DNA from: Candidatus Poribacteria bacterium
GTDB taxonomy: Bacteria > Poribacteria > WGA-4E > JAJDTR01
DNA length: 64,000 nt
Assembly: GCA_965222225.1 (NCBI GenBank)
Contig: CBDCTK010000002.1
Location: 1,824,001-1,888,000, forward strand
Direction: 5' to 3'
Part shown: in pieces, positions 17,233 to 44,132 of the stretch
Layout of the letters: every line of letters starts with the position of its first letter
How positions within the stretch are numbered: position 1 is the first letter of the stretch
Position numbers and translations under genes: made by a program
The notes under the pieces: model-generated
Databases searched by the model: none
Seen by the model: only the letters and a program-made list of their open reading frames with translations
Told to the model about the DNA's origin: nothing

Positions 17233-18363
17233 TCACGCCCCATTGGCTTCGCTGGCTTGAGGCCTGAGCAGAATTAGCGCGACTAATGCGGCAACCGAAG
17301 AGATGGATCCTGCGACGACAAATGCCCCTGAAAGCCCAAAGATATCCGCAACGGCGCCGGATGTCATGGGGCCAAGAAACATCCCGATGGCATACGTGGC
17401 TTGAAAGGCCCCCATCGCCGTTGCACGGTCCTGATCGGGTATCTGCCGAATGCTCAAGCCCATCAGCAAAGGGTACGTCATGCCGCGTCCAAACCCACTG
17501 ATACCTTGGGTGATTGCTAGGAGTGGCAGGTTTGTGACAATGGGAACGACAAACGCCATCCCCGCCATAATGAGAATGCCCACGAAAAGCGCACGATTTT
17601 CGCCTAAACGATCGGCAACGCGATGATTGACCAGTGACGCTAGAGTGTAGGGCAGCAGGGCAACCACACCAATGACGCCGAGTGCCGATTTACTCGCACC
17701 CAATCCATCTGCATACAACGGGACAAAGCCAAATGTCGTTGCCCAGATGACATATTGATTCAGAGCGGAGATTAGCGCTGTAGTGATTACTGTCCGGTGA
17801 ATCATTACCGAGCGAATCTGTCGCACGGTAAGAGATTTTCTAATTGCTCGCGGTTCCCTAATCGGCGCGGTTGAAATAATACCGAAAACCGCCAAAATAG
17901 CACCGACATAGAATGTAGATTCCATTCACCAGATTTCGGCAATCTGTCCTCCTAGACCGATAAAGACCGTTAACGATATGCCGTTGATTGCGCTGACGAC
18001 ACCCATTGCCTTGGGCGTTTCATCCGGCGGAAAGTAACTTGCATACAATACCGTGAATCCAACCCAAGTCGACGCACTGATACCGAACACACCGCGGGCC
18101 AGGACTAGATATGCCGGGTTAGGCGCAAGAGCAAGCCCCAGGCACCCAAGCAAGTTGAAGAAGTGACCTGCGTAAAGGAAAGGCAGGCGCCTCCCCAGAC
18201 GATCCGACCAAATGCCGACCGGAATTCGCAGGAGCATTTGAACGAAACCGTACGCCCCAACAATGACACCCACGGTCGTGAATGAAGCGCCTAGCGATGC
18301 GGCGTAAACAGACAATATAGGTGAGTAGACGTATAGCGCAGCCCAATACAGAAACATCGCCAC
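17233..18363 (-). pseudogene. MFS transporter split by an in-frame stop
   Basis: Two same-frame ORFs separated only by TGA at 17926-17928 (EIW*MES, Gly expected). MFS motif GIWSDRLGRR; true start codon unclear. Confidence 0.85.
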
Positions 18364-18485: not shown

Positions 18486-18514
18486 ATTCTAACCGAAGGC
18501 GACCAGGCTGTCAA
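18486..18514 (-). promoter_or_regulatory. Sigma70 promoter upstream of the MFS gene
   Basis: TTGACA-N17-TAGAAT. Confidence 0.6.
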
Positions 18515-18653: not shown

Positions 18654-21600
18654 CTACGATTTGTCAACTTCATGTGTGCATACATCCTCGTGGCTATCAA
18701 TCGCTGGCAAACCGACGAACATGCGGCTATCAATATCTGCAAGTGGTTCCACTGACCCCGTTACCGCCGCACGCGCAAAGACAATCCCGGGGCGATTGGC
18801 TTGCATTGCCCGACCGAGCACCGAAGCCTGATCGCCGATAGGGTTATTGCGTTTCACGCTGCGTCCAAGTTCTGCAATTTCACGTTGAACTCTGACTAGG
18901 GCTTCCCAGTGGCGGTGTGCAACTGCACGAAGATCTTCCGGTCTCAGTCCCTCCCGATAACTGCGCCGGACATTGGGCGGAGTCGGAAGACCGTATTTCG
19001 TACTGTTCCATCGCACAACCATCTGGGAGAATGATTCGAGTCTGCCCTGTGCAAGGCTTTTCACTGCGAGCAATTGTGGACCCACGTCATTGTCGCTGAA
19101 GTCCTTTCGAGTTGCGAGTTGCTCGTTCATTTCCTCGGTGTATGCCTCCCACGCCACTTCATCGTGATCCGGAGGCAAAGGCTCTCTTTCCAAGCTTTCA
19201 CCAATGAATGGACTAATTGACGCGCCTGATTCCTTCGCTAGGTCAAAACCGCGCTTCATCAATTCCTGAATGGTACAGAGCGTTTTCGTGGCGCCGTCAC
19301 GTTCCAAGACAATCTGCAGTGCCCATCCGAGCGTATTTCGCGTAATAAATCCTTCAGGTGCGTCCACGTCAACGCCCGTTAGCCTTGAGATTTCCGCGCG
19401 TCCATCTGCGGTCAGGCTCAGATTTGCAAGCCCCCACATCGGATCCAGTGCCGGTATAAGGGCTTCAAGCAATCCAGGATCGCGATTAAGTCTTGGACGG
19501 AGTCCGCGTGTAGTCGAAAATATCGGAAGCACGGAGTCTAGCGCTCCCGGGTCGCGTTCAAGATGCGAAACGAGGGTAAGTTTTTCTCGCGCCTCGGTTT
19601 GTGCAGCCTCGGTAATTGGCAGAATTACTGCGGCTTGATCTCCGTCAAAATCCACATTCATAGGCCTACAGACAACGGGTGGGATATGGATGGCATTGTC
19701 CTGGCGCCGTACCGGTCGAAATGCGAGAAACTGGGTTGGTGTTATAGCGGGAGCGCGATACAGAATCACCCACGAGCGGTTCATGATGGTATCAAGTGCT
19801 TGTGATGCATCTTTGGTTCGTTTACTGACTTCCACAGAGTTTTGAATCTCTCGTGTCACTATTGGTCCGAAAAGCTTCCATGCCATCTCTTCAGGAATTC
19901 CAATTTGATCGTGCTGTAGGCGAATATCCGGGACAATCACCCCCCGTCCGCTAAAAACTGACCGCGTGTTGAAGGCGAGATGACGGTGGGTAACGAGCAC
20001 GTCAAAATATTCTCGAACGCAAGATTCTAGCTGATAAAGCGTCTGACGAATGAGACTCTCGGGCGCATTGTTAGCAAGCATTCGATTTGCTCGATCGTTG
20101 ACCGTAACAAGGTTCTCGTAAGCAGTGGAAATGTTGGTATTTACGATTCTCGTCTCGTCAATCCACCATGCATTGTTGTATTCGCGCGGACTTGATGCGG
20201 TTCCGAAAAAGTCGCCATCTTCAGGGACGCCCACCTCGTCGATTGTATGCTGGCGCAGCCAAGGATGAGGAATTGGACGAGCTAGTTTGAGCGATTCGCC
20301 ATCAGGCGGCTTGAGACGGAATTTCATCGTCGGATAGCTCCTAGTCCCATCTCCCGATCCTAATGGGTGCGAGCCCTCAAGTTCGGTGCGAATGCCAGCG
20401 AAGGCAAGACGCTTCATCAGATTGACAAACCGCGGGGCAAAGCCAGCATGTTGTTCAACTTCTCCACGGGCGACACGATCCGCGAGTGTATTTATATCTA
20501 CCCAGTCTGTAGAGCAAGTATGGTAACGTTCATAAAGATTGTTGAAAACAGCAAGATTGCGCAAGACACTATACTCGATGTTACCTAACCCCTGGCCGTA
20601 AGTCAGTCCCTCACGAGCGGGCCTAATTTTCTCCCGCGCAATGTGGCGTACACGCCCCCAATACACCCAACCAACCGTGCTAGGGCGCTCGAGTCTTTTC
20701 CCATTCTTACCGAGTGTGAGGTATTCCATGCCATTCTCGGGCAGTCTCGCACGTTTCAGACGCTTGCTTAACTCTTCAATGCTTGGGGCACCAAAGGAGG
20801 GTACGATTATTGGTTCTCCTTCAACTTTCGCGACGCGGCTCATGATTGCTTCCCTTAATTGTCCAACGTTCATCCGTGTCTGCACGCCAAACGAGTTGTA
20901 AACAATTTCAACCGGAGTTCCCTCAGTGAGATGTGGCATTTCATCGTCCGGCACAATGCGGGAAATGCAGCCTTTCGAGCCGTGACGGTTCGCAAATGCA
21001 TCGCCGGGTTCAACAGGATAGGGGTAACTGAAACGATTCGCACACGACTCGCTAATGACGATTGCATCCTCGAAAGTATCAACTCCCCACGGTACAAAAG
21101 CCGTCAGTACATTTCGTCCGCACCAAAATCTGTCGGCATCAAAACTATTCTCGGTCTGAACAAGTGCGGGTTCGGGGTCAGGCGGAACGTAGAATTGACG
21201 CTGCATGCCCAGCCCCATTTGCTGATGGTTTGGGTCGTTGTGCTCGATAAACGGCACAAGCGAAGCACTGAGTCCGAGTCCGGCTTCCGGCCGATTATCG
21301 ACGACGATTAGCTTGCCATCGCGAATCTCTGCTCCAACTGCGATGCTCAAAATCTTACCAACACTTGGTCCCTCAGGTGTTTCATATGGACACACGCGAC
21401 TAAAATAACTCGGATTCATGACACGATTTTGCCATTCAACACGGATGCGGCGAAGATTGGTTTGTCGATCAAGCCAGTTGAAACTCTGAAGGCGCCGGAT
21501 GGATGGTTGACTCGCGAAGAATTCGAGAACCCATGTGTGGAGCGAAAACCAAGATTTAACGAGCGAGGCATCCCATGAAAAATCGGGAGGAGTGCTTCCT

Positions 21601-21935
21601 AGGCGCTCCGCGATGAAATCGCACAGTTGCTCGCCGACACATTTTATCTCGGCGGCGGCGAGATCTTCATTTTGAGCGATTGGCAGGACGATTCGCTCCT
21701 TACCATCAATATTGAATACCCCGTCATCATCTGGCTGTGGAATGTCGGTATACGATTCGTCTAGGTTGCCCGAACCGAATCCAAATGCAATCTCAATGCG
21801 ACAAGTATACGTACTTGTTGATTCAACGTGATAGCCAGCCAGCGGCATACGCACCGCGAGAAGTTCTGGTAGCCGATTGTTGGTGAATCGGTTAAACGAT
21901 TCTTTGTGCCAAAAAGCGGTAATATTGCGGGACAT
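18654..21935 (-). CDS. Miniaturised single-chain RNA polymerase beta-beta' (RpoB-RpoC) fusion paralogue
   Basis: Collinear RpoB motifs (CPYETPEGP, SLVPFIEHND, MQRQ, FEDAIVIS, NRHGSKG, TRMNVGQ) followed by RpoC motifs (FSGRGVI, YRAP, NVDFDGDQ, SYREGL) in 1093 aa; AGGAG RBS. Confidence 0.9.
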   Translation of the reverse strand: MSRNITAFWHKESFNRFTNNRLPELLAVRMPLAGYHVESTSTYTCRIEIAFGFGSGNLDESYTDIPQPDDDGVFNIDGKERIVLPIAQNEDLAAAEIKCVGEQLCDFIAERLGSTPPDFSWDASLVKSWFSLHTWVLEFFASQPSIRRLQSFNWLDRQTNLRRIRVEWQNRVMNPSYFSRVCPYETPEGPSVGKILSIAVGAEIRDGKLIVVDNRPEAGLGLSASLVPFIEHNDPNHQQMGLGMQRQFYVPPDPEPALVQTENSFDADRFWCGRNVLTAFVPWGVDTFEDAIVISESCANRFSYPYPVEPGDAFANRHGSKGCISRIVPDDEMPHLTEGTPVEIVYNSFGVQTRMNVGQLREAIMSRVAKVEGEPIIVPSFGAPSIEELSKRLKRARLPENGMEYLTLGKNGKRLERPSTVGWVYWGRVRHIAREKIRPAREGLTYGQGLGNIEYSVLRNLAVFNNLYERYHTCSTDWVDINTLADRVARGEVEQHAGFAPRFVNLMKRLAFAGIRTELEGSHPLGSGDGTRSYPTMKFRLKPPDGESLKLARPIPHPWLRQHTIDEVGVPEDGDFFGTASSPREYNNAWWIDETRIVNTNISTAYENLVTVNDRANRMLANNAPESLIRQTLYQLESCVREYFDVLVTHRHLAFNTRSVFSGRGVIVPDIRLQHDQIGIPEEMAWKLFGPIVTREIQNSVEVSKRTKDASQALDTIMNRSWVILYRAPAITPTQFLAFRPVRRQDNAIHIPPVVCRPMNVDFDGDQAAVILPITEAAQTEAREKLTLVSHLERDPGALDSVLPIFSTTRGLRPRLNRDPGLLEALIPALDPMWGLANLSLTADGRAEISRLTGVDVDAPEGFITRNTLGWALQIVLERDGATKTLCTIQELMKRGFDLAKESGASISPFIGESLEREPLPPDHDEVAWEAYTEEMNEQLATRKDFSDNDVGPQLLAVKSLAQGRLESFSQMVVRWNSTKYGLPTPPNVRRSYREGLRPEDLRAVAHRHWEALVRVQREIAELGRSVKRNNPIGDQASVLGRAMQANRPGIVFARAAVTGSVEPLADIDSRMFVGLPAIDSHEDVCTHEVDKS

Positions 21936-22019
21936 TCTTTTCTCCTATCAAGAATTCAGGATCCGACATGTAGAGATTCGTTTTAGGTTCTTAATACCAT
22001 AGCCGGTCCTGATTTGTCC

Positions 22020-22625
22020 TCACCATTCATGCCATTCAATGCCAAGTTCCTTCCATTCGCGTGCGAGACGTTTCAGTGTATAGTGCAAACGCGATTTGAC
22101 TGTGCCTATTGGGACACCGAGTTCATCAGCGACCTGCCGAATGTCCATTTCTGCACCGTAGACGAGGTGAAGAACCTCTCGCTTCTCATCGGGCAAGTCG
22201 TCTACAAGTTCCCATAGGAATTCGGACTGTTCGGCTTGTTCAAGCATCACTTGAGGGTCTGGCGATGCGCTGTCGATTAACCAGGTTGGCATCTGTGTAA
22301 GAGCGCCATCTTCGTCATCATAGGGCTCTTCGGGAACTTCAAGTGGCTGCTGTCTGCGTCGATGCACCGTTCGAAGGTGATTAAGGGCGAGATTGGTCGC
22401 AATGCGGTAAAGCCATGACTTCAATTCGCCGCGTCCATCCCACTGTGCCGCACATGTCCATACCCGAAGGAAAACCTCTTGGACCAAATCTTCAGTGGCA
22501 CCTTCGTCTCGGACAGTACGCAGGATGTGCTTGTAGAGGACGTGCCTGTAGCGCTCAAAAAGGATTTCAAACGCAATGGTATTTCGCCCGCGAATCTGCT
22601 CAATGAGTTCCCGATCAGATTGCAT
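22020..22625 (-). CDS. ECF RNA polymerase sigma-70 factor directly upstream of the mini-RNAP gene
   Basis: EDLVQEVFLRVW, KSWLYRIATN, VADELGVPIGTVKSRLHY motifs; AAAGGA RBS. Confidence 0.94.
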   Translation of the reverse strand: MQSDRELIEQIRGRNTIAFEILFERYRHVLYKHILRTVRDEGATEDLVQEVFLRVWTCAAQWDGRGELKSWLYRIATNLALNHLRTVHRRRQQPLEVPEEPYDDEDGALTQMPTWLIDSASPDPQVMLEQAEQSEFLWELVDDLPDEKREVLHLVYGAEMDIRQVADELGVPIGTVKSRLHYTLKRLAREWKELGIEWHEW

Positions 22626-22656
22626 CGACAGAATCCTTTCGTCGGGTTTCCACTGT

Positions 22657-22686
22657 GGATGACACCGCAGGATGGACGACGGTTCA
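22657..22686 (-). promoter_or_regulatory. Putative ECF-type (autoregulatory) promoter
   Basis: TGAACC-N17-GTCATC about 30 nt upstream of the sigma start codon; matches the generic ECF GAAC...GTC pattern. Confidence 0.5.
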
Positions 22687-42147: not shown

Positions 42148-43053
42148 TCAGGCGTAGCCCATATCCCTCAATTTTCGAACATCACGCCGCCAGTCTTCCT
42201 TTACATAGACTTGCAATTCCAGAAACACGGAAGCGTTGAGAAACTGTTCTATCTCCTCCCGAGCAAGTCTGCCTATCTGCTTAATCATATTTCCGCGATC
42301 GCCAATCAAGATTCGCTTTTGAGACAACCGTTCAGTGTAGATTATGGCGCGAATATAGATTTTACCATTCGAGCGATGCTTGAATTCCTCAACCATGACG
42401 CCCGACGCATAAGGAATCTCCTGTTGAGTCCTCAGGAAAACCTTCTCCCGCACCGTTTCGGCAACAAAAAAACGATCGGGCAAATCACTAATCTGATCAT
42501 CCGGAAAATAGAGCGGTCCAGTCGGCAAATGTGTAACAATCAGATCGCGAAGTCGTAAAACATCGCCTGAATTCTGGGCTGAAATTGGGACAATCTCAAC
42601 AAAGGGGAACTTGCCTCTGTATTGGGCAATAAGTGGCAGCAGCGCTGGCGCCTCAATCAGGTCTATCTTGTTGATGACCAAGAATACTTTTCTTGACTCG
42701 GATTCGCGTATGCGATTAAGGATCCGTGCTTCAAGAACCGGCGGTAGCTGGATGCCATCGACCATATATATAATCAAGTCCGCATCTTTAATCGCGCGGT
42801 AGGCAGCCTTAACCATCTCGTCGTGAAGCAGGTATTTCGGTGCAACTATGCCGGGAGTATCCAAAAAAATAAGCTGGTAGCCTTCAGTCGTGACGATTCC
42901 CATTATCCGATTGCGGGTCGTCTGCGGCTTAGGGGTTACAATTGCCAACTTCTCGCCCATCATCCCGTTCAGCAGGGTCGATTTGCCGACGTTCGGTTCA
43001 CCGATGATACTAACATAACCAGATTTGAAAGACTGCTGATTGGGTGCGTTCAT
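42148..43053 (-). CDS. era: GTPase Era
   Basis: GEPNVGKSTL, KPQTTR, DTPG, NKID, KH domain SQKRILIG. Confidence 0.97.
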   Translation of the reverse strand: MNAPNQQSFKSGYVSIIGEPNVGKSTLLNGMMGEKLAIVTPKPQTTRNRIMGIVTTEGYQLIFLDTPGIVAPKYLLHDEMVKAAYRAIKDADLIIYMVDGIQLPPVLEARILNRIRESESRKVFLVINKIDLIEAPALLPLIAQYRGKFPFVEIVPISAQNSGDVLRLRDLIVTHLPTGPLYFPDDQISDLPDRFFVAETVREKVFLRTQQEIPYASGVMVEEFKHRSNGKIYIRAIIYTERLSQKRILIGDRGNMIKQIGRLAREEIEQFLNASVFLELQVYVKEDWRRDVRKLRDMGYA

Positions 43054-44132
43054 TTTCCGGTACCATCCACTGTTGACGAGAATTCGCGATGTGAAGTAAG
43101 CGGGTTAAGACGCGAACCGCTCCATCCACCCGGCGCGGACGGGCTTACGAGTCCAGGGCGCCGTAAACCCGACAAGGCTTGCACGTCATAAATTTCCTGA
43201 CAGACACTCTCATATCTCAGATTGCCAATCGTAGTCCCGCTTGACAGATTGATTACGACGATGCCACAAAACGGTGACTCCCTTGCGATTGGTATATCAC
43301 TAAAAGTCGGGCTCTTGCGGCGCAATTGCGACAGCCCAACAAACAGATAGTCGCCATAGCGCGCCATACCGCGCACAAAACCGGGCAAGCGCGTCACCAC
43401 CTCATAACCGCCTCGCCCCGTGTCCACGTGAGCGAGTTCCCCCTTTGCCGACAGCAACACATAGAGTTCATCATCGTACACCCTAGGAGCGTGCGGCATC
43501 GGTAATCCTCCAAGTACAACTTCGTTGCTTGGGACGTGTATGACAACCCCGTCGGAAGTTTTGCCAGGCCGCCACCCTTCAAAATTATTCGTTTCACCAA
43601 GTGCCGTGACATACTCGGGGTGACCCTCAACCATTGCGACGCCGTTGAGGTGACACCGATCCTCTGGTGCAAGTTCGCTGATGAATTGTGGTCGCCACTG
43701 GGGATTGAAGTTGTTCCGGTCGTCCTTCAGGGAAAGGCATGAAAACAGTGTGTTGACTTGCCATAGCCCCGCCAGCCCCCACACTAGGTCATGGATTTTT
43801 AGTTCGCCACAGTAATACGCCGCTTGTGGTACGTATTGCCCATCGGAGGTGTTCGAACGACGTGGATAACTGCTAGCCAATGCGCGGACGTAGGAGAGCA
43901 TAACCACTTCGTCTTTCGTTGCGACAGCAAGATAATCATCCTTGGCAGCCAGCCCCATAGGCGAGTCAAAATCTTGTGACACCTGAACGAGATTTTCGGA
44001 GTCTCCTGCGCTAATGTAGATAATCTTGTTCGCTTGGTAGATACTAATTACAAGCGTACACTGGAGTTTCCAGAGTAGCTCGGAGAATTCCGTGGAATGA
44101 GTGCATAAAACAGGGGTTAGTGGTTGACTCAT
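43050..44132 (-). CDS. TIGR03032 (DUF4915) family beta-propeller protein
   Basis: WRPQFISELAPEDRCHLNG, MPHAPR, PGFVRG, EIYDV motifs; stop overlaps the era start. Confidence 0.85.
   Translation of the reverse strand: MSQPLTPVLCTHSTEFSELLWKLQCTLVISIYQANKIIYISAGDSENLVQVSQDFDSPMGLAAKDDYLAVATKDEVVMLSYVRALASSYPRRSNTSDGQYVPQAAYYCGELKIHDLVWGLAGLWQVNTLFSCLSLKDDRNNFNPQWRPQFISELAPEDRCHLNGVAMVEGHPEYVTALGETNNFEGWRPGKTSDGVVIHVPSNEVVLGGLPMPHAPRVYDDELYVLLSAKGELAHVDTGRGGYEVVTRLPGFVRGMARYGDYLFVGLSQLRRKSPTFSDIPIARESPFCGIVVINLSSGTTIGNLRYESVCQEIYDVQALSGLRRPGLVSPSAPGGWSGSRLNPLTSHREFSSTVDGTGK

Follow-up and report, generated by a model that had tools for sequence, protein, structure and literature searches.

A pruned single-chain RNA polymerase core encoded beside a dedicated ECF sigma factor in Poribacteria and other bacterial phyla: a candidate self-activating transcription operon

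Why would a bacterial chromosome carry the gene for a miniature RNA polymerase (mini-RNAP) immediately behind a sigma factor gene, in the position where an anti-sigma gene usually stands? The question is raised by a stretch of 64,000 nucleotides from Candidatus Poribacteria bacterium (GenBank assembly GCA_965222225.1, contig CBDCTK010000002.1, positions 1,824,001 to 1,888,000 of the forward strand), hereafter the window, in which a gene for a sigma factor of the extracytoplasmic function (ECF) type with 201 amino acids (aa) (22625..22020, minus strand) is followed on the same strand by a gene for a 1093-aa mini-RNAP (21935..18654). ECF sigma factors are usually autoregulated and encoded next to their cognate anti-sigma factor, an arrangement that is typical but not universal; their region 2 docks on the clamp helices of the RNA polymerase (RNAP) beta' subunit and their region 4 on the beta flap. 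An earlier interpretation of the letters alone (the sequence-only reading) had proposed either an orthogonal two-gene transcription system or an anti-sigma factor built as a decoy of the RNAP core. The evidence assembled here makes it somewhat probable that the two genes are a self-contained operon in which a dedicated ECF sigma factor programs a single-chain, catalytically competent mini-RNAP and the operon activates itself.

The two genes are separated by exactly 84 bp (22019..21936, minus strand), as had been claimed. This gap is too short for an open reading frame (ORF), contains the ribosome site of the mini-RNAP gene (GGAG, 21945..21942, minus strand), and was devoid of terminator-like sites in a pattern scan, in agreement with the earlier statement that no obvious terminator and no anti-sigma gene lie between them. 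The conservation of this neighborhood was evaluated in 27 related loci, of which 10 were recovered by a whole-protein search, 15 by a pattern built on a seven-row alignment of the N-terminal domain (alignment A3), and 2 by a survey of one phylum. A locus search that started from a full-length alignment (A1) instead returned 80 ordinary rpoB-rpoC regions, owing to generic beta motifs, and was discarded. In 26 of the 27 loci (10/10 in the first set, 24/25 cumulatively with the second, and 2/2 of those further surveyed), a sigma homolog is encoded directly upstream of, and on the same strand as, the mini-RNAP; the sole exception (L100) has just 7 nt of upstream DNA. The paired loci belong to five phyla (Poribacteria, Latescibacterota, Armatimonadota, Chloroflexota, and Planctomycetota) and, outside of Poribacteria, the genes are mostly separated by about 15 nt or less or overlap. 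Neighboring genes vary from locus to locus, and in the window they look like housekeeping genes; the sigma factor and the mini-RNAP are the only genes common to 18 loci, and a comparison of 14 diverse loci revealed no conserved small ORF in the 900 nt to either side. No cognate anti-sigma gene is thus conserved with the sigma factor in these sets of loci, and the same two results indicate that there is no third subunit. Further, pairwise identities of the sigma factors and of the polymerases are correlated (r = 0.56; 104 non-independent pairs). In one Phycisphaerae metagenome-assembled genome (L096:4395-8238), the sigma factor and the mini-RNAP each match in several pieces in different frames, reflecting either insertion-deletion errors in the assembly or a decaying copy.

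Judged by its domains, the 201-aa protein is an ECF (group 4) sigma factor: Pfam assigns Sigma70_r2 (E = 7.7e-18) to residues 22-88 and Sigma70_r4 (4.9e-12) to residues 142-187, together with Sigma70_ECF (1.5e-5) and no other sigma regions, and the NCBIfam sigma70-ECF superfamily model is matched at 108.3 bits against a cut-off of 42.9. The linker between regions 2 and 4 carries a family-specific conserved motif, P113-x-W115-x-x-D118...P124 (alignment A4, 20 orthologs). Orthologs from the other loci are 42-87% identical to the window protein, whereas its best match among the approximately 19 further ECF-like genes in the same genome has 30% identity. Together with its position directly upstream of the polymerase gene, this marks the sigma factor as dedicated to the mini-RNAP. 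In the main text and one supplement of the classification of ECF groups by Casas-Pastor et al. (2021; PMC7826278), no group is given an RNAP beta- or beta'-like neighbor under the terms Rpb2, RpoB, 'RNAP subunit', or the Pfam accessions.

Both sequence and structural modeling identify the 1093-aa protein as the catalytic core of a two-barrel (multisubunit-type) RNAP. A single chain comprises, in this order, Pfam domains Rpb2_3 (Rpb2 domain 3), Rpb2_6 (Rpb2 domain 6, the beta barrel; E = 6.5e-37), and Rpb1_2 (Rpb1 domain 2, the beta' barrel; 3.2e-17), such that the protein is a fusion of a pruned beta part (about aa 1-510) with a pruned beta' part (about aa 560-1078). The AlphaFold2 model (predicted local distance difference test score, pLDDT, 90.5; predicted template modeling score, pTM, 0.91) contains two barrels, and in Foldseek it matched bacterial and plastid beta and beta' subunits at E-values of 1e-23 to 1e-18. 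In the VIA comparison, residues 1 to about 506 of the model superpose on residues 19-1254 of beta (Z about 30; root-mean-square deviation about 2.5-2.7 Å over about 490-500 residues). An hhalign comparison with the RpoC protein of the same genome (E = 2e-33) covers the clamp helices, barrel, funnel, F-loop, and bridge helix. That canonical rpoC, an open frame of 1434 aa, is encoded elsewhere in the genome, and the mini-RNAP is therefore an additional polymerase.

The active site is preserved across 64 diverse family members (alignment A1; 31-49% identity). In the beta motif NRHGSKG (aa 316-322; 20970..20990, minus strand), R317 is conserved in 64, H318 in 62, and K321 in 60 of the 64 sequences; in the beta' catalytic loop NVDFDGD (aa 760-766; 19638..19658, minus strand), D762 and D764 are each conserved in 62 and D766 in 61; and a Glu-Asp pair is likewise kept (E289, 55/64; D290, 60/64). 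Ratios of non-synonymous to synonymous substitution rates (dN/dS) of 0.15-0.21 were obtained for both genes in five Poribacterial ortholog pairs and, for the mini-RNAP, extend along the whole length of the gene. From the kept active site, catalytic competence can be predicted. A switch-2-like segment and the F-loop are also retained, although the latter reads SLAQG in the window protein (aa 960-964; 19050-19064, minus strand) and in seven Poribacterial loci (L001-L007) instead of the SGARG of the family; L961 and Q963 each occur once among the 64 aligned sequences, in the window protein itself. Two lineage-specific insertions, modeled at pLDDT below 50, lie just before the clamp helices (aa 578-593; 20157-20204, minus strand) and after the beta' barrel (aa 800-817; 19485-19538, minus strand), where most family members are gapped.

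What has been pruned from this core bears directly on how a sigma factor could be accommodated. The coiled coil of the beta' clamp helices is present (aa 594-647; 19995..20156, minus strand), with model helices at 594-621 and 626-647; residues 603-647 align by hhalign with the clamp-helix segment of the genome's own RpoC (residues 281-326), and conservation within the family is at least 90% at both P625 and L628. In contrast, a phmmer comparison with a solved beta chain places residues 264-299 on beta 793-828 and residues 308-376 on beta 1077-1145. These matches flank beta 829-1076, and hence the beta flap, about 250 residues, has been replaced by 8 (junction at aa 300-307; 21015..21038, minus strand). 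The proposal of a protein that retains the region-2 dock but not the region-4 dock for its sigma factor thus agrees with both the alignments and the predicted structure. The rudder region lacks approximately 34 residues relative to the genome's own RpoC (hhalign), and the beta' N-terminus is pruned as well. The bridge helix (aa 999-1030; 18846..18941, minus strand), a helix in the model, leads straight into the conserved C-terminal region of beta'; hhalign aligned no segment with the trigger loop, and the approximately 60 residues that follow the bridge helix could contain a divergent substitute.

Upstream of the sigma gene, the TGAACC (22686-22681)-N17-GTC (22663-22661) that had been pointed out earlier is present and forms part of a longer motif, TGAACY-N14-GGTGTC. 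In the window, this ECF-type promoter (22661..22686, minus strand) consists of a -35 element TGAACC (22686-22681), a 14-nt spacer, and a -10 element GGTGTC (22666-22661), and ends 35 nt before the ATG of the sigma gene. Among 27 sigma upstream regions (26 loci and the window) from five phyla, the motif is exact in 22, and the other five carry variants with one or two changes (a spacer shorter by 1 nt, CGAAC, TGTGTC in two cases, and CCGGTC); it ends 12-37 nt from the sigma start in every locus. Outside of the motif, the upstream regions are unrelated to each other. By this pattern of conservation, the motif is the phylogenetic footprint of an ECF-type promoter, as had been suggested for the window alone. 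An AAC-type -35 and a GTC- or CGT-type -10 upstream of a sigma gene are also the layout expected for ECF autoregulation, and the promoter would presumably be read with its own sigma factor. Allowing one mismatch, two sites occur in the window against 0.34 expected; the second, CGAACT-N14-GGTGTC (43652-43677, minus strand), lies within a 360-aa ORF (43050-44132) and is probably a chance match.

Parts of the region were also found in four metatranscriptomic runs from two studies, and contigs spanning the sigma-polymerase junction (X1, 21838-22330; X2, 21665-22135; X5, 21910-22239) were recovered from three of these runs, representing both studies.

A two-protein holoenzyme that would drive at least its own operon is suggested by the close, often overlapping arrangement of the two genes, by the sigma lineage dedicated to them, and by the kept clamp helices. 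Transcription would start at TGAACC-N14-GGTGTC, approximately 35 nt upstream of the sigma gene, and proceed through the 84-bp gap into the polymerase gene, so that the operon would be autoregulated by its sigma factor. Region 2 of the sigma factor would dock on the beta' clamp helices of the mini-RNAP to yield a holoenzyme of about 145 kDa. With the beta flap gone, region 4 would have to be held in some other way, for which the conserved linker of the sigma factor or a surface proximal to beta' are candidate seats. The holoenzyme would then read promoters of the same type, at the least its own, resulting in positive feedback. We infer from these data the start site, the binding of sigma factor to polymerase, the activity of the polymerase, and which polymerase reads the promoter. 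A bolder interpretation, towards which we do not lean outright, is that the pair is a natural orthogonal, self-amplifying transcription system and the smallest sigma-dependent cellular-type RNAP, carried as a cassette across at least five phyla. Such a system would consist of just two polypeptides that, without alpha, omega, flap, or trigger loop, recognize a -35/-10 promoter. It is the better of the two functional readings put forward earlier, with sigma binding and polymerase activity as its presumed components.

Several observations weigh against a self-activating operon. First, a -35 element persists at constant spacing in the promoter although the beta flap is deleted, which is most simply explained by the host RNAP acting with the sigma factor. 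Second, at the positions of E. coli clamp-helix residues important for sigma binding (R275, E295, and A302), the mini-RNAP has other residues in the hhalign alignment. Moreover, clamp helices bind NusG-type factors too, and their retention therefore need not signify sigma binding. Third, a search for a regulon, conducted with the strict promoter pattern only, detected none: the motif occurs 3 times in the 5.70-Mb genome against about 2.7 expected by our own arithmetic, and 7 times in five other genomes against 5 for a reversed control, with 5 of the 7 being the sigma factors' own promoters. Fourth, the RNA data consist only of contigs, for which carry-over of DNA is possible, and one of them extends from the upstream gene across the promoter as well; neither the start site nor DNA-free transcription is therefore demonstrated by them. 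In an Armatimonadota genome (locus L109), a second site of the strict motif with a 15-nt spacer (G004:C5:1899351-1899377) lies on the same strand an estimated 5 kb past the end of the mini-RNAP gene; the reversed control also yields one match there, and the site may be a chance match.

Because the flap is lost while the -35 element is kept, the clamp residues differ, and the motif is not enriched elsewhere, the chief rival is that the promoter is an expression switch only. The sigma factor, together with the host core RNAP, would turn on the operon, and the mini-RNAP would then work without a sigma factor, for example on special templates, as an enzyme making primers or small RNAs, or as a back-up polymerase insensitive to inhibitors. 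Canonical -35/-10 geometry suits a holoenzyme that bears a flap, which the mini-RNAP does not, and the strict pattern detected no promoters of the same type beyond the operon. A precedent for sigma-independence may be YonO of the Bacillus subtilis prophage SPbeta, which according to excerpts of its description needs no known sigma factor (PMC5467207). However, a strict coupling in 26 of 27 loci, with genes that often overlap or nearly abut, is more in keeping with stoichiometric partnership than with a regulator acting on its target. Additionally, pruning reached the flap, the rudder region, and the beta' N-terminus but spared the clamp helices, and the sigma linker carries a conserved motif specific to the family. 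On balance, we consider it unlikely, though deserving of serious attention, that the sigma factor does nothing more than switch on expression.

A second alternative concerns the 84-bp gap, in which the sequence-only reading had seen another ECF-type promoter. If such an internal promoter were active, the polymerase gene would also be transcribed alone. The letters are present (GAACC, 21990-21986; N18; GTC, 21967-21965; minus strand), but the comparison of loci does not support them as a promoter. Motifs of the class GAACC-N16-18-GTC are at chance frequency in the window (5 observed against 6.37 expected from shuffles), and the gap motif is without the GGTGTC of the conserved promoter. In the form first described, both sites are of this uninformative class, and it is conservation that tells them apart. 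Its GTC, the putative -10 element, is not kept in any of the five uninterrupted Poribacterial gaps (L001, L002, L004, L005, and L007), and GAAC-N15-19-GTC is absent from all 7 of the orthologous Poribacterial gaps and from the 3 further long gaps; the single match in the gap scan lies inside a gene inserted in L003. The loss of the GTC, the absence of the motif from orthologous gaps, and the lack of room between the genes in most other phyla make a chance match the most likely explanation of the motif at 21965..21990. On the other side, the Poribacterial gaps have other conserved sequence in common, and two interrupted loci may require a separate promoter for the polymerase. The first of these is L003, which has an insert of approximately 3 kb with an 801-aa gene of the S9 prolyl-oligopeptidase family on the same strand (L003:2233-4638) and whose polymerase still carries NSDFDGD and the beta motif NRHG. 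The second is L006, where an insert of approximately 165 bp (L006:4752-5000), which may be a small mobile element, splits a sequence that is conserved in the other gaps. No known RNA was identified in the gap or the untranslated regions; two Rfam matches (E = 0.4-0.66) fall inside the polymerase ORF and far under the gathering scores. An internal promoter at 21990-21965 is thus very improbable.

Least credible of all, if by little, is that the mini-RNAP is an inactive mimic of the core that sequesters the sigma factor via its clamp helices in a negative feedback loop: it does occupy the usual anti-sigma position, where no anti-sigma gene is found, and does keep the region-2 dock without that for region 4, but each residue of its Asp triad, of the beta Arg, Lys, and His, and of the Glu-Asp pair is conserved in between 55 and 64 of the 64 divergent members aligned, the bridge helix, switch-2-like segment, and F-loop are kept, and 1093 aa held at a dN/dS of about 0.15-0.2 along their whole length would make a costly decoy. 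With its active site conserved and its gene under purifying selection, the protein is unlikely to be a pure decoy. An active polymerase fits the sequence data better, and YonO is a precedent for an efficient one-chain polymerase without trigger-loop homology (PMC5467207), although a dual role in which the polymerase also sequesters its sigma factor may apply.

A search of 1.84 billion representative proteins returned about 75 full-length relatives of approximately 1000 aa and 34-49% identity, publicly named only 'hypothetical protein', and no NCBIfam model fits the mini-RNAP. The module is single-copy and patchily distributed: within its own phylum, 31 of 176 genomes carry it, all from two families (8 of 10 genomes in one and 22 of 29 in the other, with the window's own genome uncounted), and in the phylum of genome G005 it was found in 3 of the 301 genomes sampled. 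No family member was recovered from phage records; the 36 matching records were below 60% identity and none covered 80% of the query, and the ten matches listed covered at most 38% of it, the annotated ones being ordinary rpoB or rpoC. Likewise, no member was detected in IMG/VR viral contigs with the A3 pattern or in plasmids with the N-terminal domain search. A metagenome protein atlas contains other clusters of fused beta-beta' proteins, 1221-1787 aa in length.

Comparison with described systems helps to place the module. The structures of Mycobacterium tuberculosis ECF holoenzymes, as given in excerpts of PMC6372665 (PDB 6jcx and 6kon were among the structural matches), combine a bacterial beta/beta' core with an ECF sigma factor. 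Shared with them are two double-psi beta-barrels with NADFDGD and a beta Lys/Arg site, the bridge helix, the clamp helices, a two-domain sigma factor (regions 2 and 4), and promoters with a GAAC-type -35 and a GTC-type -10. The module differs in that its core is a single 1093-aa chain, as compared to beta and beta' of about 2,400 aa or more, that lacks the flap, rudder region, beta' N-terminus, and, as far as alignment shows, trigger loop; in having no gene for alpha, omega, or an anti-sigma factor; and in a sigma lineage that is found only beside the mini-RNAP. Full-length beta::beta' fusions are represented in NCBIfam by PRK09603 and PRK14844, the Helicobacter- and Wolbachia-type fusions. 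These have the same order of beta then beta' in a single chain, but they are complete housekeeping enzymes of about 2,840-2,890 aa, whereas the mini-RNAP is extra to a canonical rpoC and, scoring 147.8 bits where the cut-off is 5372 and 157 bits where it is 4632, is not a member of either.

Closer in size is YonO, an efficient polymerase (excerpts of PMC5467207). Like the mini-RNAP, it consists of one polypeptide of about 100 kDa with homology to multisubunit RNAP; it has no trigger-loop homology, and none was aligned in the mini-RNAP. YonO is phage-borne and, in the same excerpts, has few active-site residues in common with cellular RNAP and no known sigma factor; compared with it by description only, the mini-RNAP family is clearly derived from bacterial beta/beta' (E = 1e-38 to a solved beta subunit), chromosomal, and paired with a sigma factor. 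Orf6 of the yeast killer plasmid pGKL2, as described in excerpts of PMC2919709, is a 982-aa Rpb2::Rpb1 fusion of comparable size that has the same subunit order and has lost about half of its coding sequence, but it is encoded on a eukaryotic cytoplasmic plasmid, has no sigma-type partner, and is of independent origin. None of these systems joins a pruned, one-chain core of bacterial type with a dedicated sigma factor. Full-text searches of the literature returned no paper on a sigma-linked, fused mini-RNAP, and the module looks like an undescribed miniature transcription machine that bears on the evolution of multisubunit polymerases and on sigma docking. If the holoenzyme model is correct, sigma-directed initiation would need neither flap, trigger loop, alpha, nor omega, and two genes with a 26-bp promoter would provide synthetic biology with a compact, portable, and orthogonal transcription module. 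The retention of a second polymerase by these sponge symbionts, by Chloroflexota, and by Planctomycetota raises the question of what it transcribes, and the 'hypothetical protein' label marks a gap in annotation.

The gene downstream of the polymerase encodes a transporter of the major facilitator superfamily (MFS; 17233-18363, minus strand) and begins 290 bp past the polymerase gene. A near-consensus sigma-70-type promoter in this spacer (TTGACA-17-TAGAAT; 18486-18514, minus strand) suggests that the transporter is a separate transcription unit. The MFS gene itself consists of two ORFs in the same frame (145 and 230 aa), divided by an in-frame TGA (17928-17926) that is followed at once by an ATG (17925-17923); candidate explanations are a split gene, a pseudogene, read-through of the stop codon, or an error in the assembly.

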